Shown piece by piece: positions 2,672 through 28,270 of a stretch of DNA of 32,000 nt. Position 1 is the stretch's first letter, and every line of letters starts with the position of its first letter. The DNA lies in the NCBI GenBank assembly GCA_039809905.1, contig JBDHVY010000001.1, forward strand, positions 750,001 to 782,000, given 5' to 3'. Both the position numbers and the translations under genes were made by a program. The notes beneath the pieces are model-generated. The model did no database searches. It was not told the origin of the DNA and saw only the letters and a list, made by a program, of their open reading frames with translations. The DNA comes from Candidatus Babelota bacterium (lineage in GTDB: Bacteria; Babelota; Babeliae; Babelales; Vermiphilaceae).

Positions 2672-3343
2672 TTATGGAACAAAAAGGGTAACGAGGTAAT
2701 TTCTTAAGATATAAAAGAAGAATACGGCAAAAAGAATTCCATCAAATCTATCCAAAAAACCGCCATGGCCAGGTAAAAATGTGCCAGAATCTTTCAGATG
2801 AGCGCGGCGTTTGAGCCATGATTCAAAAAGATCTCCTAAAAGGGATAGTATGCATACAATGAGCGTAAATATACCAATGAATGTCCATGAAAGCTTATAT
2901 CCGTATTCAAAAATGATAAGAAAAAAGCCAATGAACGCGAAAATATAACCACCGAGCATTCCTTCCCATGTCTTTTTAGGGCTAACTGAACGGCAAATAT
3001 GATGTTTTCCGAGTAAGGTTCCCGTTACATAACTGCCGGTATCAAAGCTAAAGACGATGATAAAAAGTATTAAAAGTAATTCATGATAGAGTACATCATG
3101 ATTAAGTTTAATTAACATTGTGAAAGGTAAAATAAGGTAAGGAGGCATTAAAAGCCAAAACAAAGGAGTATCAATTGAAAAAAATCGTGTCCATTCATAC
3201 ACGACAATGAGGAGAAAAATAACAACTAAGATAAGAGAAAAAAAGAACGGAGGCAAATAAAAATATACGCCCCAAAAACCTATCCCAAGAGCAATGCCTG
3301 TCATCAGACGATTAAGAAATTCAGTCGAAAGTTGTAAATGCAT
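2672..3343 (-). CDS. cdsA: Phosphatidate cytidylyltransferase (CDP-diglyceride synthase)
   Basis: Polytopic membrane protein with the CdsA signature SWLKRRAHLKDSGTFLPGHGGFLDRFDG near the C-terminus. The start may instead be the internal Met at 3304; the ORF overlaps the yraN stop by 23 nt. Confidence 0.85.
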   Translation of the reverse strand: MHLQLSTEFLNRLMTGIALGIGFWGVYFYLPPFFFSLILVVIFLLIVVYEWTRFFSIDTPLFWLLMPPYLILPFTMLIKLNHDVLYHELLLILFIIVFSFDTGSYVTGTLLGKHHICRSVSPKKTWEGMLGGYIFAFIGFFLIIFEYGYKLSWTFIGIFTLIVCILSLLGDLFESWLKRRAHLKDSGTFLPGHGGFLDRFDGILFAVFFFYILRNYLVTLFVP

Positions 3344-3704: not shown

Positions 3705-4646
3705 CTAAAACCGATTTGCCATATGCTTTGCTTTTGCATTTTGCGCGAGTTCCATGTTTTTAGCATTTAATAGTTCTACTGCTTTTTTCTGCTCAATAAG
3801 TTCTGTTTCTAAAGCAATAATATCTGGTTCAAGCGTGGGTAGTTTTGGTAACCAGAAGGAACGTATTTTATGTAAGCGTTTTTCAGCTGCTTTTAAACTT
3901 CCTTTATGTAAATAAAAAACACAAATGTTACATTCGCTTGCAGCTAATTGTTGGTAACATTGTTGCTGTATGGTGCTTACCGCTTGCTGATATTCTTTAA
4001 AATGATCTTGTTTTAAAAATAATTCAGTTAAAGCGAGTGTTTCTTCTGTTTTGGATTGATCTCTATCAATAGCTAATATGCATTCAAATGAGCTTGCAAT
4101 TGTCTTATACAGAGCATATTCTTGCTTTTCACTACCTGGGTATAGTGCACAATATTGGCTATATAACAACGCGGATTTTGCAAATTGCCTATCATCAAAG
4201 AATGTATCGGCAAGCTCTAAGAAATACTCTGCAAGCAGGGTGATATCAGTCGTCATTTTCAGCAATTGCTCAAGATATTTTATAGTGGCAGTAGTGTTTC
4301 CTTGAGCTTTTTGTGCATCTTTCGCTTTTACTAGTTGCTCGTGTTCCATATCAAGATATGTTCGTACCTTTTTTTGTTTTGCTTCTTTTTTAGTTGATTT
4401 GCGCATGCGTTTTTTACGCGAAGGTTTTTCTATTGAGGGAAGTTCTACATCAAATTGTTGAGCTGTTGTTTGTTTTTGTACATTTTTATTCATCGCTGTA
4501 TTGTCTTGGCATACGCTTGTATTGATGAGTAATGTGATGAGTAAAAAAGTTGATAGAATAACGTGGTTTCTTGTTTTTATCACGATAATATGCCTATCAT
4601 TAAAATATTTAAAAATTTGCTGTTTCAGGATTAACGCGTAATACAT
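3705..4646 (-). CDS. BamD/YfiO-like TPR lipoprotein (outer-membrane assembly factor candidate)
   Basis: Hydrophobic leader ending in Cys (LLINTSVC). TPR-like helices with ALLYSQYCALYPGSEKQEYALYKTIASSF, reminiscent of BamD. First gene of an operon with yraN and cdsA. An alternative GTG start at 4583 gives a more typical lipoprotein leader (MIKTRNHVILSTFLL...). Confidence 0.45.
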   Translation of the reverse strand: MYYALILKQQIFKYFNDRHIIVIKTRNHVILSTFLLITLLINTSVCQDNTAMNKNVQKQTTAQQFDVELPSIEKPSRKKRMRKSTKKEAKQKKVRTYLDMEHEQLVKAKDAQKAQGNTTATIKYLEQLLKMTTDITLLAEYFLELADTFFDDRQFAKSALLYSQYCALYPGSEKQEYALYKTIASSFECILAIDRDQSKTEETLALTELFLKQDHFKEYQQAVSTIQQQCYQQLAASECNICVFYLHKGSLKAAEKRLHKIRSFWLPKLPTLEPDIIALETELIEQKKAVELLNAKNMELAQNAKAKHMANRF

Positions 4647-4735
4647 GCAAACAAGATCAACAGTTATTATTACGCGCCAGTATAAAAACTAGTATACTGG
4701 TATCATCATAAAATAGAAGTTTAAGATTCTTTGTA

Positions 4736-4775
4736 CCCCATTGCGTTCAACATGGGGACACCGGTAAAGAAGCGC
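4736..4775 (+). other. GC-rich hairpin/pseudoknot-like motif, copy A
   Basis: CCCCAT(4736-41)...ATGGGG(4752-57) followed by ACACCGGTAAAGAAGCGC. GCGTTC (4743-48) can pair with GAAGCGC (4769-75). Lies about 55 nt upstream of the gspE/pilB start, in otherwise AT-rich spacer. Confidence 0.3.
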
Positions 4776-4827
4776 TAAACTGACACGAGAAAACATTGTT
4801 AAGAAATAGGGTTAAAAGGATACTCTG

Positions 4828-6537
4828 ATGAAAAAAAATAATGGTGACTTACTCGTAGAACTTGGTCTGGTTACTGCTGCACAATTAACTGCCTGTCAGC
4901 AAGAAACAGAAAAAACTGGTGCTGCAGTTGTTGATTGTCTTATTGAAAAAAAATTTGCTACACAAGAAGATATCGCAAAAGCATATGCCAAGCATGCAGG
5001 ATTAGAATATATTGATACGGTAACAGATAAGACAGCAGATCTTGATCTTTTGGCAAAAGTACCATTAAAGTTTTTGCGTGATAATGAAATTATGCCAATT
5101 ATGGTTGATGGCAACATTATTATTTTGACGGCAGATCCTTTTGATTTTCAACCACTTGATGAACTAAATATGTTGCTTGGCGGTGGAACACGATACGCTG
5201 TTGCGCCCCTTTCAGTTATTATTAACGGTATAAACCGTTACTATCCCCTTGAAGGCACCGAGCGAATGATGAAGGAACTTGAAGAGGAAGAAGAAGCGCC
5301 CAAAGAAGTAGCATTTGAAGAAATAGAAGAAAAAGATATTTTGGGCATGGCTACAGAAGCGCCTATTATTAAATTAGTTAATAATATTTTTTTTCAAGCG
5401 GTCAAACGAAATGCTTCTGATATTCATATTGAACCTTTTGAAAAAGAAATACGAGTTCGTTATCGTATTGATGGTGTAATGTATACTGCGATGAATCCAC
5501 CTAAACGTATTCAAGGTGCGCTTATTTCTCGTATCAAAATTATGGCGCATTTAGATATTGCTGAAAAACGCATTCCACAAGATGGAAGAATTGCTATCAA
5601 AGTTGGTGATAAGCCGTATGATATTCGTGTTTCAGTGCTTCCTGTTGCATTTGGTGAGCGTGTGGTGATGCGTTTGCTTGATAAATCACGTACCTTTACG
5701 GGATTGAAAGATATTGGCTTTAGTGACCGTGATTATGCAGTTATTGAAAACAATATTAATCGTCCGAATGGTATTATTTATGTTACAGGTCCAACTGGTT
5801 CTGGTAAAACAAGTACATTATATTCAATTTTAAATCAATTGAACCGTCCTGAAGTTAATATTGTAACGGTAGAAGATCCTATTGAATATCAGATGGCGGG
5901 AGTTGGACAAGTTGGTGTCAGAGAAAAAGTTGGGTTGACTTTTGCTGCAGCATTGCGGTCAATATTACGTCAAGATCCAGATATTGTTATGATCGGGGAA
6001 ACACGTGACCAAGAAACAGCACAAATTGCAGTGCAAGCAGCTTTAACAGGACATCTTGTTTTAAGTACATTGCATACTAATAGTGCGCCAGCATCAATCA
6101 CGCGATTAATTGATATGGGTATTGAACCATTTTTAATTGCATCTTCAGTGGTGATGGTTGTTGCGCAACGATTAGTACGTAAATTGTGCCCTCATTGTAA
6201 AAAAGAATATCATCCGAATAAAGAATTGCTTCAACGTATTGGATTATCTGCAAAAGAAGCAAAAGAAGCTAAACTTTATGAGCCAGTAGGATGTGATGAA
6301 TGCAATAAAACAGGATATCGTGGCCGTGTTGCGATTTTTGAAATTATGGAAATGACACCTGCAATTGCAAAACTTACTATGGAACGTTCTGAAACTGGTA
6401 TTATTCGTGAACAAGCCATTAAAGATGGAATGATTCCTTTAATTAAAGATGGCTTGCGCAGAATTAAAGATGGTTTAACAACCATAGAAGAAGTTCTTGC
6501 GGTAGCAACTGTTGAACAAGAAACAATTGAAGAATAA
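4828..6537 (+). CDS. GspE/PilB-family type II secretion / type IV pilus assembly ATPase
   Basis: 569 aa. N-terminal GspE_N/MshEN-like domain, Walker A GPTGSGKTS, Walker B/Asp box, His box, and tetracysteine CPHC...CDEC motif. RBS aagga. Confidence 0.9.
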   Translation: MKKNNGDLLVELGLVTAAQLTACQQETEKTGAAVVDCLIEKKFATQEDIAKAYAKHAGLEYIDTVTDKTADLDLLAKVPLKFLRDNEIMPIMVDGNIIILTADPFDFQPLDELNMLLGGGTRYAVAPLSVIINGINRYYPLEGTERMMKELEEEEEAPKEVAFEEIEEKDILGMATEAPIIKLVNNIFFQAVKRNASDIHIEPFEKEIRVRYRIDGVMYTAMNPPKRIQGALISRIKIMAHLDIAEKRIPQDGRIAIKVGDKPYDIRVSVLPVAFGERVVMRLLDKSRTFTGLKDIGFSDRDYAVIENNINRPNGIIYVTGPTGSGKTSTLYSILNQLNRPEVNIVTVEDPIEYQMAGVGQVGVREKVGLTFAAALRSILRQDPDIVMIGETRDQETAQIAVQAALTGHLVLSTLHTNSAPASITRLIDMGIEPFLIASSVVMVVAQRLVRKLCPHCKKEYHPNKELLQRIGLSAKEAKEAKLYEPVGCDECNKTGYRGRVAIFEIMEMTPAIAKLTMERSETGIIREQAIKDGMIPLIKDGLRRIKDGLTTIEEVLAVATVEQETIEE

Positions 6538-7142: not shown

Positions 7143-7640
7143 GTGCATAATAAAAAAGGTTTTACGTTAATTGAAGCGATGGTTGTTATCTGTTTGTTTG
7201 CTTTGATTTCAACATTGGCAATTATGCAACTATCTTTTTTGGATGAAATCATTGCGCGTTCACAAATGGATAAGCTTGCAGCTGTTTGTTCCTACTTAAG
7301 GCAAAAAGCAATTGCAACAAACTGTGAGCAAAAATTAGTTTTTGATCTTGAAAAAAATGAATATCGTTGTGGTGATGTATGTGAAACATTACCGCAACGA
7401 TATTTGTTTGGTTTTATGGAAAAAGCTCTCGGGCCTCCTGGCTCACCTTCGCAAAAAATTAAAAAAGCTATAACTTTTCCCGGTAATATAATACATTTTT
7501 ATCCAACAGGTATTATTTCTTCTGGTACCGTGTATGTTGTTGATAAGAAGAAACAATATATGTATGCATTGAGTAATGCTGTTTCTCAATTTTCTTATTT
7601 ACGCATTTATCGCTACGAGGGTAAGTGGAAGTTACTTTAG
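7143..7640 (+). CDS. Type IV pilin-like pseudopilin (GspH/FimT-like)
   Basis: GTG start. Prepilin leader and N-methylation motif MHNKKG/FTLIEAMVVICLFALIS. 165 aa. Confidence 0.75.
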   Translation: MHNKKGFTLIEAMVVICLFALISTLAIMQLSFLDEIIARSQMDKLAAVCSYLRQKAIATNCEQKLVFDLEKNEYRCGDVCETLPQRYLFGFMEKALGPPGSPSQKIKKAITFPGNIIHFYPTGIISSGTVYVVDKKKQYMYALSNAVSQFSYLRIYRYEGKWKLL

Positions 7641-13103: not shown

Positions 13104-14459
13104 ATGGATGTAAAAGATTTGCTTTCTGAAATCCAAAATAACATTGATGAAGTAATTTCGCAAAAAGATCCGGTAGGGATTAGCTTATGGCATGAATTGC
13201 TTAAGATTCATCCGGTTGATATTGCACAATTGTTTAAAACATTAAAAAAAGAGCATGTTATACTTTTGTATAATGCTTTACCTAAACATGTTCAATTGGA
13301 TCTTTTCCATGAATTATCAGATAAATTAAAGGTCGTTGTTCTTTCTTCTTTAGATGATCATGATCAAGCTGAAGCTTTTCAATCTCTTTCCACTGATGAA
13401 TTGACTGATTTATTTGATATTTTTTCTGATGAAGAACTTAAAAGGTACTTGGAATCATTGAACAAGCGTGTGCGTGAAAAAGTTATTAAAATGCTTACGT
13501 TTGAACCGGAATCAGCAGCAGGTATCATGCACACTGATGTGCTTACCCTGATGGAGGATTTTACGGTTGAAAAGAGTATTCAATTGATGCAGCGATTACG
13601 ACCGAGTAAAGATGTGCATCAATTAATTTTTGTGGTGAATAAAGATCATCATCTTGTTGGTTTTGTCTATTTAGAAGATCTTCTTTTTAATAAACCAAGT
13701 ACACGCATTTCTTCTTTTATGCATAAAAATGAATTAATCGCCAAAGCCCATGAAGACCGTGAGACTATAGCAAAAGAGATGGTGCACTATGGAGTGACAA
13801 CTGTTCCTGTTATCGGCAACAACAATATTTTTCTTGGTGTTATTTCAGGAGATACGTTGGTGGACGTTTTGGTTGAAGAAGCATCAGAAGACGTTCAAAA
13901 AATGGCAGCAATGTCTCCGCTGACACGTCCTTATTTTGAAACTCCTTTTTTCCAATCTGTGTATGAGCGTAGTTATATTTTAGTGATATTATTATTAGCT
14001 GGATCGGTTTCAACCACTATCATGCGTATGTATGAAGCAACGCTGACCGAAATGCTTTTGTTTTTTGTTCCAATGCTTACCAGTGTTGGAGGTAATACGA
14101 GTAATCAAACATCAGCTGTTGCAATTTGCGGTATGGCTTCTGGTGAATTTGATCATACAACAGTAAAAATGTTTTTACGGCGTGAATTGATGATGGCAAC
14201 ATGTTTATCTTTTATTCTTGGATTAACTGCATTTATACGTGTGTATTTAACCAGTGGCGTATTATGGGAAAGTCTTGTAGTAAGTTTTACGCTCGCAATA
14301 ATTGTATTAGTGTCCGTTACTCTTGGTAGTGCAATGCCATTCATTTTAAAGCGTTTCAAGATAGATCCGGCATTTTCAGCGGGCCCATTCCTAGCGACAA
14401 TTATGGATATTGTGGGAATATTAATTTACTGTACTAGTATTAAGATTCTTCTTTTTTAA
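13104..14459 (+). CDS. mgtE: Magnesium transporter MgtE
   Basis: N-terminal MgtE_N domain, tandem CBS region, and 5-TM C-terminal domain with the conserved PFLATIMDIVG motif. Confidence 0.9.
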   Translation: MDVKDLLSEIQNNIDEVISQKDPVGISLWHELLKIHPVDIAQLFKTLKKEHVILLYNALPKHVQLDLFHELSDKLKVVVLSSLDDHDQAEAFQSLSTDELTDLFDIFSDEELKRYLESLNKRVREKVIKMLTFEPESAAGIMHTDVLTLMEDFTVEKSIQLMQRLRPSKDVHQLIFVVNKDHHLVGFVYLEDLLFNKPSTRISSFMHKNELIAKAHEDRETIAKEMVHYGVTTVPVIGNNNIFLGVISGDTLVDVLVEEASEDVQKMAAMSPLTRPYFETPFFQSVYERSYILVILLLAGSVSTTIMRMYEATLTEMLLFFVPMLTSVGGNTSNQTSAVAICGMASGEFDHTTVKMFLRRELMMATCLSFILGLTAFIRVYLTSGVLWESLVVSFTLAIIVLVSVTLGSAMPFILKRFKIDPAFSAGPFLATIMDIVGILIYCTSIKILLF

Positions 14460-14759: not shown

Positions 14760-14837
14760 GTCCTCATCGTCTAGCCTGGTCTAGGACATCGCCCTTTCAC
14801 GGCGAAAACAGGGGTTCAAATCCCCTTGGGGATGCCA
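14760..14837 (+). tRNA. tRNA-Glu (anticodon UUC)
   Basis: Closely resembles the canonical bacterial tRNA-Glu. GTCCTCA acceptor, anticodon arm CGCCCTTTCACGGCG, T arm AGGGGTTCAAATCCCCT, encoded GCCA end. Confidence 0.9.
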
Positions 14838-16286
14838 TTGTATACAATCACCTGAATTGGCGATTAAATCAAATGGCGAAAGCAGCTCCCAATGCAGCTT
14901 TTCTCCAATTATGCGTAAGTTCGATAGTACGGTTTTAATAAGAAGCCTTTTTTGCCCAACTTCTGAACTCATAAAAATATCATATGCTCTATCAGCCAGC
15001 TTCAGCAGCATCTCTGCGGTAATATAATAATTAGTTTCTGCTTCTTGTAATTGTTCCAAACGAATAGCGGTATCAGTTGCTTTATCTTTTAGATTAGTGA
15101 AAAACTTGTCATATTGAGCGTCAGTAATACTCCCTTTCAATTTATCCATGTAAAGATTATCCATCATCACTGTAGTGGTGTTTTGTTCTTTTAGGAGTTT
15201 TTCATTTTCTTGTTTATGAAATTCAACTTTATTTTTATGTGTTTCGGCCAAAACATCGATGATATCTTGTAAGATATTTTTTGGCATCTGCAAGCTCAAA
15301 AAAAGATTGCCTAATTCTTCAGTTATTTTTTCTTCACGGAACCACGTTGCCCCATGTTTTCCTTTTGCTTGGGTACAATGATAATAGACGTGTCCTTTTT
15401 GTCGTTCATGTGTTATTGCAAGTCCACAATCACCGCATCGCAATAAACCGCGATATAAGACATCTTCTTTACCTTTATAGCGTTGAACATTCTTGCCATG
15501 TTTCTTTCTGATTTCTTGTACTTCCTGGAATAGTGCTTGGGAAATGATGGGTGGATAATTATGAGGATAGGTTTTGCCATTGATGCTCATGATGCCGTGA
15601 TAAAAAGTGTAATTTAATATTTTATCTACATTGCTGTTTGCCCATTCAACGCCATAGTCATTTTTAATTTTCTTGCATAAGGTGCTGAAAGAAAAAGCAC
15701 CGGTTGCATATAATTCAAATGCTTTGCGCACCACTTCTGCTGCAAATTCATCTACAATGATGGTAGTCTTATCACCACCTAAGGAAATATTTTTATAACC
15801 ATAAGGTGCTTTTGCAGGCCATTCACCTTTGCGTAATTTTTGTTCAATTGCACGTTTAACGTTATCGCTGATGGCATCGGAATAATATTTTGCTAATCCA
15901 AGGCTGATGCCGAATTGAAATTTCTCCACTGCGGAAATGTTGCTATTGATAATCTGCCCATCGGAAATGAAATGCAACTCAAGCTGATCGCTCAGAGCTT
16001 TTTCATACAGGATTGATATACGCTTATCGAATGTATTTCGCGATAATCTATCTACTTTATCACAGCAAATGACGACCTTTTCTTTCTGATTGAGGGCGTA
16101 ATCAATAATCGCATCAAATTCAGAGCGGTTATTGGTATAAGCACTTTCATCAAAACTGCAGGTACGCAATACGGTAAATCCTTTATTGCGGCAGTATTGT
16201 TCGAGGCGACTGATTTGTGCTGGCAATGAATTGCCGGCTTCTTGTTGCTCTTGGGTGCTGACACGGGCGATAAGAATCGCTTTCAT
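14781..16286 (-). CDS. Large serine recombinase (integrase)
   Basis: N-terminal resolvase catalytic domain (MKAILIARVSTQEQ with Ser nucleophile; VDRLSRN). Recombinase domain. Zn-ribbon CGDCG...YYHC. C-terminal coiled-coil. The last 18 codons plus stop (14781-14837) are the antisense of tRNA-Glu. Confidence 0.85.
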   Translation of the reverse strand: MKAILIARVSTQEQQEAGNSLPAQISRLEQYCRNKGFTVLRTCSFDESAYTNNRSEFDAIIDYALNQKEKVVICCDKVDRLSRNTFDKRISILYEKALSDQLELHFISDGQIINSNISAVEKFQFGISLGLAKYYSDAISDNVKRAIEQKLRKGEWPAKAPYGYKNISLGGDKTTIIVDEFAAEVVRKAFELYATGAFSFSTLCKKIKNDYGVEWANSNVDKILNYTFYHGIMSINGKTYPHNYPPIISQALFQEVQEIRKKHGKNVQRYKGKEDVLYRGLLRCGDCGLAITHERQKGHVYYHCTQAKGKHGATWFREEKITEELGNLFLSLQMPKNILQDIIDVLAETHKNKVEFHKQENEKLLKEQNTTTVMMDNLYMDKLKGSITDAQYDKFFTNLKDKATDTAIRLEQLQEAETNYYITAEMLLKLADRAYDIFMSSEVGQKRLLIKTVLSNLRIIGEKLHWELLSPFDLIANSGDCIQWHPQGDLNPCFRRERAMS

Positions 16287-16345
16287 CCATGAATCCTTCT
16301 GTTTTATGGGTGTTTTTTGTTGAGGATAGTGTAACAGAAGTAAGA

Positions 16346-16379
16346 GGGATTGCTATTGTCTGAAGCAATATGCAATCCC
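16346..16379. promoter_or_regulatory. 34-bp near-perfect palindrome upstream of the recombinase gene
   Basis: GGGATTGC-t-ATTG-tctgaag-CAAT-at-GCAATCCC. Lies between the Ank-RBR stop (16437) and the recombinase start (16286), with no U-tract on either strand. Confidence 0.5.
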
Positions 16380-16436
16380 ATTATATATTTGATAGCTTTA
16401 TAAATGTTTTATCTGATGTGTTACGAATGCTGTGTC

Positions 16437-22748: not shown

Positions 22749-24587
22749 ATGGGGAGATCTTATCAGTCGAGATTTTTTAAATTCTTTCTTTTTTCTTTTG
22801 TTTGGGTGTCGATATTCGCAGAACATCATTATGCAAGATTCGCAATAAATTATACTCGGTTAGATGATAAATCTGTTAAAGAGTATAGATCAAGTAGTGA
22901 TTTTTCCCATGATAAGAAATGGTATCAACATAATATATTTTGCACCAACCAGTCTCTTTTTAGTAATTATACAGCTCATGATTTTAAGAGTCATTTTACT
23001 ACACGAGGATATACAGAATCAGAAATTCTGAATCAATCTTGTTTATACATGTCGGATGAATTTGTAAAACATGCACAAACATATTCAGGTTATAAAAATA
23101 AAATACGAGAAATGTATGTTGAATTAAAAAATCTTAGCGTAATTCAAAAAGCTTGTCGTGTAGTGAATGGAACTTACTGTAGAAAATTACAAAAGCGGAT
23201 TGGGGATCTTTATAGATCATTAGACGCAATTAAAGAAGAACCACAGATCAAAGGATATTATAATCCGATTAATGCTGCAGAAAAAACTTTTCATCCAACT
23301 ATTTCTGAACATTTTGCAGAATATGAAACATTAGAATCTGTTTATCAATCGCATACGCCAAATCTGTCAAAAGCAATTAATGCGCGATCAGTTATATATA
23401 GAAATAGTGCTGCTAATAATTCTTGGCTTCAGCCAATACAGAAATCCTACAATCTCGATGATAACATTAAAAAATTACTATCTCGATATGGCCATAAGGC
23501 TGATTCTTTTACTCATTGTTATGGCAATCAATTGCAGCAGGTTATTCATCAGGAATCATTAGATATCCTTAGCCATGTAGATAATCTCCCTCCGCATTCC
23601 GTTTTGTATGATCATCAAGAAGCTCTTATTGATATGGCTGCATCTATTGTTGACTATAATCACGCAGATATGCCAGATAAAGCGATGGTTGTTGCGGATT
23701 TTTGTTGGACGTTGCTTGATTATGGCCAAGCAATTGCTGAAGGTGCAGCTTTAGGATTATATTCTGCTGCACATGATATTCTGACCAATCCTATTGAAGC
23801 AACAGTATCTATCGTTGCAGGTAAGCAAGTTCTTGCATTCCAATTATGCAAAGTCCTTTATAATGTTGCTGATATTGGAGCAACAGCGATACATGATTTT
23901 AAAACAGCTCAAGACAAGTGGGATAAGTATACTGAGCCTTTGAATACTATTATCGATGCTATCAACAAAAAAGAAATTGCTGTAAGAGATGCAATTAAGG
24001 CTGGTACCGCTTTTGTGGTGGGTTATAGAGCTCAGGGGAAGTTGCTTGGAGGATTGGGCAAATTTTGTAATACCATTAAGCACAAAAGTATTAGCTTTGT
24101 TAAAAATAGTCCGTTGTTTAGTCCACAGGACTATTTAACAACGCCAGAAGGCTTGCTGTTTAAGGTTGCAAAACTAAATCAACTTGAGCATCCAAATAAA
24201 GCTTCATATTTAAAAGAATCTATTGAAAACCGAATAGGAACAGTGTGGGATACTATTAAACCTACTGATCTTATGTATCCGGGGACAAAAATTCCTAAAT
24301 CATTTGAGCTTACTTTGGGAAATCAGAAACTTTGGGTTGCTCCCAATGCAACTAAACACATGACAGACTATGCGGTAAAACATCTTGAAGTTACACATTC
24401 TGTTCCTATGAATAGCCAAGCCTTGCTTACTAGTTTTAAAATTGCTGTGGAGCAAGCTGTATCTAAAGGTATACTATATGACACAATGATTAGAGTTGGT
24501 TGCTGGGAATTTAGATTTGGCATGCCTCGAAAAGCCGGTTTATTACCAAGTATTTATCATGCAAATTTTAAACCAAATGGATGGTAA
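22749..24587 (+). CDS. Polymorphic-toxin-like secreted protein 2 (conserved body + C-terminal module CT2)
   Basis: 612 aa. aa 1-472 are paralogous to toxin 1 and end in YLTTPEGLLFK. The unrelated 140-aa tail (24165-24584) carries LWVAPNATKHMTDYAVKH...CWEFRFG. Confidence 0.75.
   Translation: MGRSYQSRFFKFFLFSFVWVSIFAEHHYARFAINYTRLDDKSVKEYRSSSDFSHDKKWYQHNIFCTNQSLFSNYTAHDFKSHFTTRGYTESEILNQSCLYMSDEFVKHAQTYSGYKNKIREMYVELKNLSVIQKACRVVNGTYCRKLQKRIGDLYRSLDAIKEEPQIKGYYNPINAAEKTFHPTISEHFAEYETLESVYQSHTPNLSKAINARSVIYRNSAANNSWLQPIQKSYNLDDNIKKLLSRYGHKADSFTHCYGNQLQQVIHQESLDILSHVDNLPPHSVLYDHQEALIDMAASIVDYNHADMPDKAMVVADFCWTLLDYGQAIAEGAALGLYSAAHDILTNPIEATVSIVAGKQVLAFQLCKVLYNVADIGATAIHDFKTAQDKWDKYTEPLNTIIDAINKKEIAVRDAIKAGTAFVVGYRAQGKLLGGLGKFCNTIKHKSISFVKNSPLFSPQDYLTTPEGLLFKVAKLNQLEHPNKASYLKESIENRIGTVWDTIKPTDLMYPGTKIPKSFELTLGNQKLWVAPNATKHMTDYAVKHLEVTHSVPMNSQALLTSFKIAVEQAVSKGILYDTMIRVGCWEFRFGMPRKAGLLPSIYHANFKPNGW
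23705..24164 (+). repeat. High-identity block shared with toxin 1 (partner 20828-21287)
   Basis: See the partner feature. Identity ends abruptly one codon after ...GLLFK. Confidence 0.8.
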
Positions 24588-24614
24588 TTTTTAAATTATA
24601 AAAGTCAAAATAAG

Positions 24615-25124
24615 ATGTTAAAACTCAAAAATATTTCACCTATTACTAGAGAAATTTACAATGAATCAGATTGTTACATTAAAATTAGATTGCTATTTAA
24701 GCAGCTAGAACCTTCAGATGGTGTGTGCTATTGGAATGCTTATGGGCAAGCAAGTTCTTTAACAGAAATTACCTTGTACAATCCAACGGGAGCCATTTAT
24801 GATCTGACAATTTTTTTTGCTGTCTCTAATATTAAACGGAAAGATATATCAACAATAAAAAATGAGGCGATTGAAAAAATTGGTTTTCCCTTATTTGAAA
24901 CTTATATAGAAAAATACCAAGAAGGATATTACCATCTGCCGGAAGAAAAAATTGACTTTGAGATTCATGTTGGGGAAAAAGATACCACTATTTTATTTTC
25001 ATCGAATTCAGTAGTACTTCACGTTAATAATGAATCAGTTATTTTTGGTTTTGATTGTGATAATGACCTATGCTATATCCATCTGAAAAATATGACTTTA
25101 AATGAAGAAGGTTTTTTGAAATAA
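24615..25124 (+). CDS. Immunity-like protein for CT2
   Basis: 169-aa ORF 27 nt downstream of toxin 2, same strand, no signal peptide. Confidence 0.55.
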   Translation: MLKLKNISPITREIYNESDCYIKIRLLFKQLEPSDGVCYWNAYGQASSLTEITLYNPTGAIYDLTIFFAVSNIKRKDISTIKNEAIEKIGFPLFETYIEKYQEGYYHLPEEKIDFEIHVGEKDTTILFSSNSVVLHVNNESVIFGFDCDNDLCYIHLKNMTLNEEGFLK

Positions 25125-25172
25125 AAATAGTTAACCTCTTCAACCTCTAAAAACTTCAAATAAAGAGTACGT

Positions 25173-25505
25173 ATGATTAAGGATTCTTTTATTAACATAC
25201 AAGAAATAGAAAGTGAACTAAAAAATATGTTAGAGATAGCGGAAATCTTTAGCATAAAATTTGCATTAATGAGTCAACAAGTAGCATATATCTTTTCTCA
25301 ATTAAAAAACTGTAAAACATATGAAGATGTGGATTGTTATTTTAAATGCTTAGATATAATCCAAGGAGATTTAGCCCGTTTATCTTACGAATATAATGTA
25401 GGATTACCTGATCGGTTGATGAGATTTGTGCATGATTTTGATAATTTTGAAGAAGCAAAAAAATATTATTTTCCAAAAATAAAAAGTGGAGAATATTCAT
25501 TTTAG
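25173..25505 (+). CDS. Second small immunity-like/orphan ORF
   Basis: 110-aa helical, acidic ORF, same strand. Lies between immunity 2 and the orphan CT1 fragment. Confidence 0.4.
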   Translation: MIKDSFINIQEIESELKNMLEIAEIFSIKFALMSQQVAYIFSQLKNCKTYEDVDCYFKCLDIIQGDLARLSYEYNVGLPDRLMRFVHDFDNFEEAKKYYFPKIKSGEYSF

Positions 25506-25514
25506 TGCAGCTTA

Positions 25515-25638
25515 AGAACTAAGGTCTAGCTACATTTGTGGGATGTTCAATTATCAAAACAAGATATACAACAAGTAGGATGGATGACTCGTGATAATAG
25601 TCATCTTAATGTTAGTTTAGATGGCAGGGTAACTCATA
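25515..25638 (+). pseudogene. Orphan fragment of the toxin-1 C-terminal module
   Basis: Homologous to 21540-21663. The last ~100 nt are nearly identical, encoding WDVQLSKQDIQQVGWMTRDNSHLNVSLDGRVTH. A diverged patch introduces an in-frame TAG. There is no start codon or body. Confidence 0.8.
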
Positions 25639-25710
25639 TTTGTAGGGTTTTGTTTTGAAATAATATCAGATGATAGTGTAACAAAATGAAAAAAGATTGC
25701 TCATTTGCTG
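25639..25710 (+). repeat. Patchwork scar: copy of Rep-gene segment (19114-19149) fused to copy of recombinase-upstream segment (16325-16362)
   Basis: TTGTAGGGTTTTGTTTTGAAaTAATAtCAgaTGATA matches 19114-19149 (4 mismatches). GATAGTGTAACA...GATTGCT...CTG matches 16325-16362. The two overlap at TGATA. Confidence 0.6.
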
Positions 25711-25867
25711 TTCTTTAGACCTTTTTTAATAGAAATAGGCTCATAGATAGCAGATATAGCTAAAAAATTAATCCATAGATGTTTTTCTATAAAAATGACC
25801 ATTTGATTATTTATTTGTGTGTGGTACGCTAATAACAAGGCTAAAATATTACAAACATAGAGGTTTT

Positions 25868-26434
25868 ATGAAAACATTACGAAAACATGCGATTATTGCT
25901 TTTTTATTAGTTGCAATGACTACAATAATTCCTATACATGCTAATTCAAATATTAACTATCAAACTAAAGCGGAAGAATTATTGATTGAACTCAAAAAAA
26001 CTGAAGCTCCCTGGTATAAAACATCCGAAGGACTTAAGGATTGTGCGAGTACTATCGGGATAGTTGCAACATGGGTATCTTTTCCTTTTGTATTCCATTC
26101 TTATGTAGATGCAAAGATGGGACTTGAAGGAAAACCCAAAAACCAGACTTCTCTGTTAGATGAGATCAAGAAATGGTCAAAAGAAGCCACGGCAACTGAG
26201 AGAGTCGGTATAGGATTTATTTCGCTGTCTTTTATTGGATTGCTTTTTTCTCTGCCGGTAATGACAGGAAATAGTAGGTCGAAAAAAAGTGAAATTCCAT
26301 GGTATAAAAAACCTGAAGTGCATAAGGATTGTAAGGATTTTGCAGTTATTGCAGGAGCAGTAGCGGGATGGGCGTCATCTCCATATATATTCTATGCATG
26401 TAAAGATCAGATCAAGAAATGGCTAAAGATATAA
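25868..26434 (+). CDS. Small membrane protein with internal duplication (family shared with 28031-28270)
   Basis: Start at Met 25868 (RBS agagg). Signal leader. Two repeats of the form PWYK..E..KDC + TM helix + IKKW. Confidence 0.6.
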   Translation: MKTLRKHAIIAFLLVAMTTIIPIHANSNINYQTKAEELLIELKKTEAPWYKTSEGLKDCASTIGIVATWVSFPFVFHSYVDAKMGLEGKPKNQTSLLDEIKKWSKEATATERVGIGFISLSFIGLLFSLPVMTGNSRSKKSEIPWYKKPEVHKDCKDFAVIAGAVAGWASSPYIFYACKDQIKKWLKI

Positions 26435-26570
26435 TTGTAAATAATCTCTATCTCAGTAAGCAATAAACTCGAAGATAGTCTTGCTTGCGAGGAAGAATTC
26501 CAGGCTGAATTTGAAAGAATGAGTGCGCAGAAAAGCGACATCAAAAAGAAGAGCAGATAAAAAATATTTT

Positions 26571-26598: not shown

Positions 26599-26708
26599 TT
26601 TCCTAAAAAACAGTAATTTTATTTGATATAATTTTTGAGTAAAGCATGCTGTTTTCATTCGTATATGAAAAAATAGATTATTGGTTTCATATCTTTTATA
26701 TTATTCTT

Positions 26709-27494
26709 ATGAAGAAAAATTTAAAAAAAGGTCATAAATTTAATGGCCCTTTATTGAGTTCTGTAAGGTTCAATCCTTCTGAAGAAATAAATAATTCTGC
26801 TTATCCTTTTTGTTTAGAAATTATTCAGAATTTAAAAGAAATAGACTTCTCTTCGCCAGTTACTTTCTTTGTGGGCGAAAATGGTACAGGTAAATCAACG
26901 CTGCTTGAGTCAGTTGCCTACCATGCCGGTTTTGGGTCAGAAGGAGGGAGTAAAAATATTTCTTTTAAGACATCCAAGGATGATACCTATTCAGGTGTTC
27001 AAGGTTTAGCTGATCAGCTCATTCTTTCGTGGAAACAAAAGCCTAAAGATGGGTATTTCTTTAGGGCAGAAACTTTTTACAATATTGCAAACCATTTAGA
27101 CTATCTTAATGATGAGAGTGGTGGAGCTTATGCTTCATATGGTGGCAAATCTTTGCACCATCAATCTCATGGTGAAAGCTTTTTATCTTTTTTTAAAAAT
27201 AGAATGGGTAAAGGCGGATTTTTTATATTAGATGAGCCTGAAGCCGCGCTTTCGCCGCAGCGTCAAATTGCTTTGTTGTTGGTTATTCATCAATTATGCA
27301 AAGATTCCAATACTCAGTTTATTATTGCAACTCATTCGCCCATTTTACTTGCTTATCCAAAAGCAGTTATTTATTCGTGTGATGAAAAACAGCTAAAGCA
27401 AATTATGTATACAGAAACAGCTCATTATAAAATAACTAAAGATTTTCTTAATAATCCTGATCTCTATCTAGGAAAATTATTCTCTATGGAATAA
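26709..27494 (+). CDS. Stand-alone ABC/SMC-like P-loop ATPase (COG3910-like, from memory)
   Basis: Walker A GENGTGKST, signature-like SHGES, Walker B FFILDEPEAALS, H-loop IIATHSP. Met 26709 is the likely start. No TM or partner domain. Confidence 0.8.
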   Translation: MKKNLKKGHKFNGPLLSSVRFNPSEEINNSAYPFCLEIIQNLKEIDFSSPVTFFVGENGTGKSTLLESVAYHAGFGSEGGSKNISFKTSKDDTYSGVQGLADQLILSWKQKPKDGYFFRAETFYNIANHLDYLNDESGGAYASYGGKSLHHQSHGESFLSFFKNRMGKGGFFILDEPEAALSPQRQIALLLVIHQLCKDSNTQFIIATHSPILLAYPKAVIYSCDEKQLKQIMYTETAHYKITKDFLNNPDLYLGKLFSME

Positions 27495-27886: not shown

Positions 27887-28030
27887 AATAACCCCTATTT
27901 AATTATTTTTTATAACTCTAACTGTAGCAATTTTTTACTTTTTGTCAATATATAAAATTACAAATTGACTATTTGCTTATGTGTGGTACGCTGACAACAA
28001 GACTAAAATATCACAAACATAGAGGTTTTT

Positions 28031-28270
28031 ATGAAAATATCACGAAAACATGCGACTATGGCTTTTTTATTGATTGCAATGGCTGCAATAGTTCCTGTAT
28101 ATGGTAACTCAGGCATTAAGGATCAGGCTAAAGAAGTAGAAATATTGGTTGAGCCTAAAAAATCTGAAATGCTGTGGGTTTATGCAAAATTAGGATTATT
28201 ATTTTGTGTAATCGTTGCCTATGGGGTATCAAAGCCTGGAGGAGATAGAGATAATATACGACAGCCTTAA
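28031..28270 (+). CDS. Truncated paralogue of membrane protein 25868-26434
   Basis: 79 aa. The upstream region and the first ~55 codons are homologous to 25812-26015 (MKISRKHATMAFLLIAMAAIVP vs MKTLRKHAIIAFLLVAMTTIIP). Confidence 0.5.
   Translation: MKISRKHATMAFLLIAMAAIVPVYGNSGIKDQAKEVEILVEPKKSEMLWVYAKLGLLFCVIVAYGVSKPGGDRDNIRQP

Follow-up and report, generated by a model that had tools for sequence, protein, structure and literature searches.

Organisation of the locus

The sequence analysed here is a 32-kb stretch of DNA (the window) from a Babeliales (Dependentiae) bacterium, and our subject is a short patch in it, at 25515-25710, that is made up of three relics: the tail of a toxin gene, a fragment of a Rep-like gene, and the promoter region of a recombinase gene. 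Searches of the window refer to these 32 kb, which belong to a contig of 1.23 Mb, and comparisons were made with related loci labelled L001-L093, which hold ~1.4 Mb of sequence on a single strand and 2.8 Mb on both strands.

The intact counterparts of the relics are found in a resident integrative element (14760-22226, minus strand). It begins at tRNA-Glu (14760-14837, plus strand), which is overlapped by the last codons of a large serine recombinase gene (14781-16286, minus strand), and continues with an ankyrin/IBR cargo protein gene (16437-18008, minus strand), the Rep-like gene (18068-19249, minus strand), a small upstream open reading frame (ORF), toxin 1 (19851-21668, plus strand; residues 508-604 correspond to Pfam Ntox17), the small gene imm1 (21665-22039, plus strand), which overlaps the toxin 1 stop codon (ATGA), and a distal arm. 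Beyond the element follow a GIY-YIG gene (22335-22586, plus strand) and toxin 2 (22749-24587, plus strand), which has a toxin 1-like N-terminal body and a different tip. Toxin 2 with p169 (24615-25124, plus strand) and the CdiI-like p110 (25173-25505, plus strand) makes up the cassette (22749-25505, plus strand) that is taken below to have displaced an Ntox17 tip. A short linker (25506-25514) lies 3' of the p110 stop codon, and p110-like homology in L007 and L011 stops at 25504-25508. The patch is next, and is followed by p205 (25868-26434, plus strand) and an AAA ATPase gene (26646-27494, plus strand).

Three relics in the patch

The first relic (segment 1, 25515-25638, plus strand) covers the last 41 codons of the Ntox17 domain, and its intact counterpart is the 3' end of toxin 1 (21540-21663, plus strand). 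Between 25538-25638 and 21563-21663, 99 of 101 bases are shared (98%; E 1e-46), and from 25515 onwards the match can be read in frame as 41 codons, of which 88% are identical at the protein level to residues 564-604 of toxin 1; the frame is interrupted by a TAG at 25527-25529. A copy of the toxin 1 3' end with an internal TAG had been proposed in a first-pass annotation of the sequence, and both the nucleotide core and the in-frame codons bear this out. Identity is only ~57% over the first 23 nt (25515-25537) and steps up abruptly at 25538, and the poorly matching part could be filler instead of toxin relic. The relic starts 10 nt past the p110 stop codon and lacks a start codon, retains 41 of the ~97 domain codons, and ends two codons short of the stop, with no immunity gene after it. 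The toxin 1 and toxin 2 bodies share 88% of their DNA sequence (divergence 12.3%), and at such divergence two or fewer mismatches per 101 bases would occur by chance with a probability of 2e-4. Because segment 1 is 98% identical to toxin 1 while the toxin bodies differ by 12%, we propose that gene conversion against toxin 1 has probably made the two alike, or that segment 1 is younger.

The second relic (segment 2, 25639-25675, minus strand) corresponds to approximately codons 34-46 of the Rep-like gene and reads ..SSDIISKQNPT, the intact counterpart being located at 19103-19149 (minus strand). Thirty-three of 37 bases agree with 19113-19149, and when the alignment is extended to a TAACTC hexamer the match is 47 nt long at 85% identity, with one gap. 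The score of 47.3 bits is to be compared with a best shuffle of 36.2 bits in 600 whole-window controls and of 32.5 bits in 1000 island-only controls, so that the earlier assignment of this piece to 19114-19149 in the Rep gene stands far above shuffled sequence. Within the Rep family, no N-terminal motif is more conserved than IISKQNPT, which the segment encodes, and in the less conserved flank the closest sequence is the Rep allele of the window itself, with four mismatches against at least nine in the other alleles fetched. At the protein level segment 2 is not significant, its ~12 residues giving a protein profile E of 14. A 15-residue Rep match at 22650-22694, upstream of toxin 2, has an E of 1.4 and was taken as chance.

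The third relic (segment 3, 25669-25703, minus strand) overlaps the Rep relic by TGATA and has its intact counterpart in the promoter region of the serine recombinase gene (16293-16364, minus strand). Its pairwise match to 16322-16357 (23.3 bits, E 1.4) is not significant alone; 6-7% of shuffles reach the same score, as do 11% of the real 42-mers taken elsewhere in the window, and on these statistics segment 3 was first considered a chance match. That conclusion was reversed by the occurrence of its core in other genomes and by an independent profile. The core is a conserved box, TGTTACACTATCATC, situated 40-50 nt 5' of the recombinase start codon in L007, L009, L046, and L081. When the patch was compared with the ~1.4 Mb of related loci, GATGATAGTGTAACA was found as an exact 15-mer at the recombinase upstream position in L007, L009, and L046, and on both strands of this material (2.8 Mb) the 12-mer TGTTACACTATC occurs six times, five of these sites lying at that same position and the sixth in the patch. 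The sequence in L081 agrees with segment 3 at 27/30 positions in the patch search and at 29/33 in a comparison of elements, where the resident copy agrees at 26/33.

For the profile, the upstream regions of L007, L009, L046, and L081 were used and the window was left out. Within the window, it detects the recombinase gene's own region at 16293-16364 (E 4e-10) and the patch at 25669-25703 (17.6 bits, E 7.8e-5), all other matches having an E of at least 2.8. In the 1.4 Mb of related loci it has no match above 10 bits off the expected position, and the two non-training matches above 10 bits are in L017, downstream of Rep, which is the expected place of the recombinase, and at a relic promoter in L007. 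The claim that the patch carries a copy from just upstream of the recombinase gene is therefore upheld by a profile from foreign genomes, although the pairwise alignment is not significant; with regard to alignment statistics in general, segments 1 and 2 are significant as they stand and segment 3 by the profile only. Across the element family a TGnTAnnnT box occupies the recombinase upstream position, and we take this to be the recombinase promoter on the basis of the established sigma-70 extended -10 consensus. The box is intact in the relic, where TGTTACACT, an extended -10-like element, runs from 25683 down to 25675 on the minus strand. A promoter and terminator scan of 25100-26000 gave nothing above shuffle expectation, and no -35 element.

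Order, junctions, and edges of the relics

All three segments have the same orientation as their sources, and their order is the reverse of the source order, as had been described. On the plus strand the element runs recombinase, promoter, cargo, Rep, toxin, immunity gene, while the patch runs toxin end, Rep start, promoter. Each step in the patch thus goes backwards within the element unit, and each must therefore cross a unit boundary. A single deletion is not sufficient to generate such an arrangement, in agreement with the first-pass annotation, and a head-to-tail array with more than one deletion is needed.

The overlap reported at the second junction, TGATA, is a true overlap of 5 nt at 25671-25675. 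At the first junction, the hexamer TAACTC does occur in both parents as proposed, but the switch itself is at 25638|25639, 3 nt to the right of the hexamer: toxin sequence extends to CATA (25638) and Rep sequence begins with TTTG (25639), without microhomology at the point of switching. A shared hexamer nearby would be expected by chance in ~1.5% of cases. Apart from a left-hand gap of 9 nt, or up to 32 nt, and a right-hand gap of 10 nt (25704-25713) to which no source could be assigned, the three segments tile the whole patch. The region from 25714 to 26469 (plus strand), comprising p205 and its upstream region, is 80% identical to positions 2259-2994 of L015, and because the p205 homologue of L015 aligns as one block from 25714, this position defines the right edge of the scar.

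Displaced toxin tips in related loci

Conservation between toxin 1, toxin 2, and the L007 toxin extends as far as the sequence YLTTPEGLLFK (around residue 479), beyond which they diverge. Residues 508-604 of toxin 1 match Pfam Ntox17 with an E of 3.2e-25, which exceeds the cut-off; the Pfam scan assigned no family to the toxin 2 tip, and none to the toxin body. Both toxins are followed by small genes predicted from sequence to confer immunity, of which p110 has a precomputed CdiI-like match, and p169 is found together with the toxin 2 tip in L012-L014. The common body and the divergent tips identify a polymorphic toxin locus, a conserved body with diverging tips being the hallmark of such toxins (PMC3482391). 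No toxin relatives were found in a scan of one genome per species, and a metagenome scan returned four short contigs only.

A vestige of the Ntox17 tail is seen directly at the 3' side of a foreign-cassette immunity gene in L007, L012, and L014. In L007 it is placed after a CdiI-like gene, and in L012 and L014 after homologues of p169, which are companions of the toxin 2-type tip. In these three loci, 20-odd codons have been kept and the tail continues into an imm1-like gene, and the window is the one locus in which the tail breaks off ahead of its stop codon and is joined to other sequence. With the window included, what remains after replacement is the last 20-41 codons of the Ntox17 tip. 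The breakpoints of the tail differ between loci (~21612, 21604, and 21540/21563 in toxin 1 coordinates), so that incoming cassettes seem to have replaced the tip on more than one occasion, a process that recurs among the relatives. Judged from the sequences, segment 1 is a vestige of an Ntox17 tip that was displaced by a new toxin-tip/immunity cassette.

Two further observations concern p110. Its DNA (25149-25508) is 88-90% identical to the homologues in L007 (4051-4409) and L011 (3074-3411), compared with 72-80% for neighbouring genes, and its last 93 nt are common to a different CdiI-like gene in L007 (7169-7261). This pattern suggests a recent exchange, or use of the 3' end for recombination.

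The resident element and its family

The recombinase has the Resolvase, Recombinase, and Zn ribbon regions of a large serine recombinase and adjoins tRNA-Glu. Because its 3' end overlaps the tRNA gene, and because the layout is conserved, the island at 14.8-22.2 kb is considered to be one integrative element. The order recombinase-cargo-Rep beside MgtE (13104-14459, plus strand, in the window) and tRNA-Glu is kept in L007 and L009; in the window, a tRNA-Lys (14600, plus strand) is also present. Among 65 related loci with the recombinase, it is on the same strand as Rep, and downstream of it in nearly all, and in most of the ~40 loci checked its reading frame ends inside a tRNA gene of the opposite strand (Glu, Asp, Arg with three anticodons, or Gln). 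The Rep-like protein has 1205 homologues, the named ones being from Babeliales. The window Rep protein has no Pfam match and gives a match to PHROG 702 'replication protein' (E 4e-4), and some of the 1205 homologues carry a precomputed match to PF05144 (Phage_CRI), marked weak for P0003.

The other end of the element is probably marked by the distal arm (22084-22197), a conserved segment of 115 nt whose final sequence, GGATGCCA, is the same as the closing 8 nt of tRNA-Glu; a hairpin comes next. The arm with its hairpin is present at 22084-22226 in the window, at 6521-6663 in L007, and twice in L009 (8427-8571 and 5892-5994), and the same hairpin is found directly 3' of intact tRNAs in L015 and L081. 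By itself, the 8-nt tRNA repeat falls short of significance because of its length, and the arm is a probable distal attachment junction. The possibility that the arm is a pseudo-tRNA-Glu was rejected, as global alignment was no better than with shuffles and Rfam gave no tRNA. The tRNA-Glu region has no repeat longer than 15 nt elsewhere in the window. With the element ending at the distal arm, toxin 1 and imm1 are to be regarded as cargo.

The ankyrin repeats and IBR domains of the cargo protein encoded at 16437-18008 bear a likeness to a eukaryote-like RBR ubiquitin ligase, and the cargo at the same position in relatives is unrelated, namely a protein of 687 residues in L007 and one of 395 residues in L009. 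Taken together, the loci have the appearance of a family of Dependentiae integrative elements that targets tRNA genes and is as yet undescribed; a literature search found no paper linking Dependentiae to serine recombinases or mobile genetic elements.

Older element copies in related loci

With a profile built from 120 Rep homologues, decayed second copies of Rep are directly observed in relatives, in the orientation of the intact gene and on the side away from the tRNA. L007 has a frameshifted Rep pseudogene at 4436-4925 (profile positions 246-373), L009 a relic at 7432-7587, and L015 a relic at 3041-3256 that comes directly after the p205 homologue, while small Rep fragments are present in six further genomes. 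In L009, the decayed copy is bracketed by the two distal arms, an arrangement that represents a head-to-tail tandem pair. L007 shows the canonical element order, except that GIY-YIG takes the place of the recombinase: the Rep relic is followed by a cargo gene, a relic promoter (5830-5891), and the GIY-YIG gene. The idea that a single ancestral Rep copy, common to the window and L007, was split by p110 and the toxin tail was considered and not adopted, as the canonical-order deletion model accounts for L007 with one deletion. L015 contains tRNA-Glu, the hairpin, GIY-YIG, and the AAA ATPase, and has neither element nor toxins; a tblastn match there to the recombinase is probably due to the overlap with the tRNA and was not counted as a remnant.

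The hairpin and the GIY-YIG gene (22198-22586 in the window, 12640-13300 in L081, 50-443 in L015, 6122-6365 in L007) adjoin the tRNA end, and in L081 they stand in place of the recombinase from codon 18 to the tRNA. In L007, a 60-nt repeat of the GIY-YIG 3' end is found at 3972-4029, just before the AAA ATPase gene. Hairpin and GIY-YIG may constitute a selfish module that disables these elements. As for p205, its upstream region and 5' end (25788-26005) are duplicated with 80% identity at 27949-28168, on the 3' side of the AAA ATPase gene, and the copy there is truncated to 79 residues; the gene also has an internal 51-nt repeat (25994-26044 and 26282-26332), and L015 has a single p205 homologue after its ATPase gene.

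Proposed history of the patch

Based on the comparisons above, we consider it probable, although well short of certain, that the patch is a non-functional composite scar and a product of ordinary genome decay, representing the collapsed boundary of older stacked element copies beside tRNA-Glu. The first step in its formation, shown by comparison with relatives, is the displacement of a tip: toxin 2 at one time ended in an Ntox17 tip resembling that of toxin 1, and a foreign block containing the new tip, p169, and p110 took its place, sparing the last 41 codons (25515-25638). The second step is suggested by the orientation and order of the relics and by the situation in relatives. Older copies, oriented as the intact element, would have been present beyond toxin 2, and two deletions would have brought their remains together. 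One would begin at the penultimate codon of the toxin, remove the old immunity gene, and end around codon 46 of Rep in the next copy; the other would extend from around Rep codon 34, across the start of that copy and the next recombinase gene, to just past the -10 box, where TGATA forms the overlap. The p205 gene may be cargo of the last copy; in L015, the 3' end of a Rep relic comes after the p205 homologue, which is the arrangement expected of cargo. In a third step, the 101-nt toxin core would have been homogenised later by gene conversion, unless it is younger.

The divergence of the three segments from the resident copy is unequal, with mismatches at 2/101, 4/37, and ~8/36 positions (2%, 11%, and ~22%), and the difference between segments 1 and 2 has a Fisher p of 0.04, or 0.005 with the extended 47-nt match. 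This inequality, and the closer agreement of segment 3 with L081, indicate that the segments are relics of sibling copies and not fresh copies of the island. The proposal that the patch records former copies next to the toxin locus is accordingly supported by the relics in relatives as far as additional copies are concerned, but they would not be copies of the present island. Similarly, serial deletion in an array agrees with the head-to-tail pair in L009, whereas a replicative concatemer, suggested earlier as one source of such an array, is less likely than integration repeated at tRNA-Glu. Most likely, the array arose by repeated site-specific integration at this tRNA.

Several points weigh against this history. 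The extra copies are represented by scraps of 37 and 35 nt alone, whereas at least two lost copies and two to three deletions are needed, and the 98% identity of segment 1 calls for an additional assumption, that of gene conversion. The Rep relic is on the far side of toxin 2, away from the expected place for the Rep of its own element, which means that an additional copy must be assumed. Within the window, only one distal arm is detectable, and protein searches and the 120-sequence Rep profile found no other fragments of Rep or recombinase. A large serine recombinase is not obviously able to integrate repeatedly by reusing a hybrid attachment site. Finally, no close strain with an intermediate state was found, and the other assemblies of the region are 100% identical.

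Alternative explanations

The patch could in principle have been generated by one microhomology-mediated template-switching event, which copied three short stretches of the resident island into a break on the 3' side of p110. The pieces are short and of one orientation, their sources are within 4-9 kb, and the 5-nt overlap at the second junction and the shared hexamer near the first would be in keeping with such an event. A single event is difficult to reconcile with divergences from the resident templates of 2%, 11%, and ~22%, with segment 3 agreeing with relatives at positions where the resident copy differs, and with the absence of microhomology at 25638|25639. Furthermore, the toxin tail occurs in relatives without the Rep or promoter pieces, and the large Rep relics there cannot be templated insertions. 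Template switching, one of the origins offered in the first-pass annotation, is on these grounds unlikely.

It may also be asked whether only the toxin tail is real, the Rep-like and promoter-like stretches being due to chance or convergence, for example as a promoter for a minus-strand transcript. Promoters do resemble each other, segment 3 lacks a significant pairwise match, and segment 2 amounts to ~12 residues with a protein profile E of 14. We regard this explanation as quite unlikely, because segment 2, at 47 bits, exceeds the best shuffle (36 bits) and is nearest to the window's own allele in its non-conserved part, while segment 3 has a profile E of 8e-5 with no off-target match above 10 bits in 2.8 Mb. 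In addition, TGTTACACTATC is confined to recombinase upstream regions and the patch, and no minus-strand gene is located downstream. The pieces can thus be accepted as real from direct comparison, quite apart from how they came together.

A different question is whether the scar, if it is one, has acquired a use. The intact TGnTAnnnT box could fire leftwards and give rise to an antisense RNA over the toxin relic and p110/p169, or the patch could insulate p205. This is very unlikely, since no -35 element is present, the consensus scan shows neither promoter nor terminator at the site, and conservation does not extend beyond the identical assemblies; nothing suggests a function for the patch at present.

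The patch also lies at a 101-nt repeat shared with toxin 1, where an assembly could go astray. Contigs from the runs SRR27308757 and SRR27308745, possibly the read sets of the window assembly itself, are 100% identical to the window and break only between the two single-nucleotide polymorphisms (SNPs) of segment 1. In SRR27308757, L001 ends at 25594 and L004 starts at 25595 and spans both junctions; in SRR27308745, L002 ends at 25594 and no contig spans the junctions. A chimeric assembly, which had been named as an outcome that would invalidate the patch and for which these breaks inside segment 1 could be cited, is hardly credible, given that in the SRR27308757 contigs both SNPs are phased with the unique sequence beside them, that L002, the one SRR27308745 contig to reach segment 1, has the left-hand SNP in phase, and that the alternative joining would be a loop running from toxin 2 through the relic and imm1 to toxin 2 again.

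Other features of the window

Two features of the window are remote from the toxin locus. A 111-nt tandem repeat (252-480; 2.1 copies, 99% identity) is located within a minus-strand ORF (32-1357), and the region at 30338-32000 is GC-rich with a strong G skew and has no Rfam match. The latter encodes the start of an 857-residue protein that is extremely glycine-rich, contains GGAI and FxxN-like motifs, and bears a likeness to chlamydial Pmp-type autotransporters.

Comparison with known systems

With regard to the toxin relic, the closest parallel is provided by the orphan toxin tips of the CdiA-CT/CdiI and Rhs-CT/RhsI systems. As in the window, paralogues there have a common body with swapped tips, and a fragment of the former tip that lacks a start codon is found downstream of the current toxin and immunity genes. 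Tips orphaned by incoming cassettes are known from contact-dependent growth inhibition and Rhs loci (PMC9086364, PMC3967940). Classical orphans are complete tips that come with part of the conserved pre-toxin region and with their immunity gene, and can hence be re-activated, whereas the window has 41 codons, a stop, and no immunity gene; the immunity gene is kept in the relatives. The host is also different, being an intracellular member of the Dependentiae, and the toxin body belongs to no Pfam family.

The Rep and recombinase relics are more readily compared with tandem accretion at tRNA or tmRNA genes, as in the tycheposons of Prochlorococcus, the ssrA islands of Dehalococcoides, which have a large serine recombinase, and elements of the ICESt1 type. 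Common to these and the window are a recombinase beside a tRNA gene and accumulating cargo; a putative short repeat of the tRNA 3' end at the far boundary and, on the history proposed here, the arrangement of newer elements nearest to the tRNA, with older ones as outward fragments, would be further common points. In the accretion systems, newer elements push older ones away from the tRNA and leave fragments behind (bioRxiv 10.1101/2020.12.28.424599; PMC3146451). The window differs from them in that the reading frame of the recombinase itself enters the tRNA gene, in that the tRNA-end repeat is only 8 nt, and in that the Rep protein may be distantly Phage_CRI-like. Moreover, the older copies have been reduced to scraps of 35-37 nt, and mobility is a prediction.

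Junctions formed by microhomology-mediated break-induced replication (MMBIR) or fork stalling and template switching (FoSTeS) also join several short pieces of the same orientation, and the one 5-nt overlap in the patch is similar to theirs. Unlike MMBIR/FoSTeS products, the pieces in the window are not identical to their templates, differ in age, and have one junction without microhomology, so that decay of real copies is favoured by the comparison.

The patch itself is junk DNA, and its value is that of a historical record, according to which toxin 2 at one time had the same Ntox17 tip as toxin 1 and more copies of the element would once have been present at this site. In more general terms, the record points to toxin/immunity diversity in Dependentiae arising by cassette replacement and by repeated landings of elements at the same tRNA. 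It is possible, and we put this forward as a tentative view only, that a system as yet undescribed is involved: Rep and large-serine-recombinase elements, common in Dependentiae, that would read into their target tRNA, ferry polymorphic toxin/immunity cassettes and eukaryote-like effectors from one of these intracellular bacteria to another, stack in several generations at a single tRNA, and become disabled when the hairpin and GIY-YIG replace the recombinase. The patch would then mark a boundary at which two or more extinct generations have collapsed. As for mechanism, the patch is a new example of the processes known from orphan tips and tandem accretion and not a new one, while the element family appears to be undescribed, is a more interesting lead than the patch, and would merit a proper survey.

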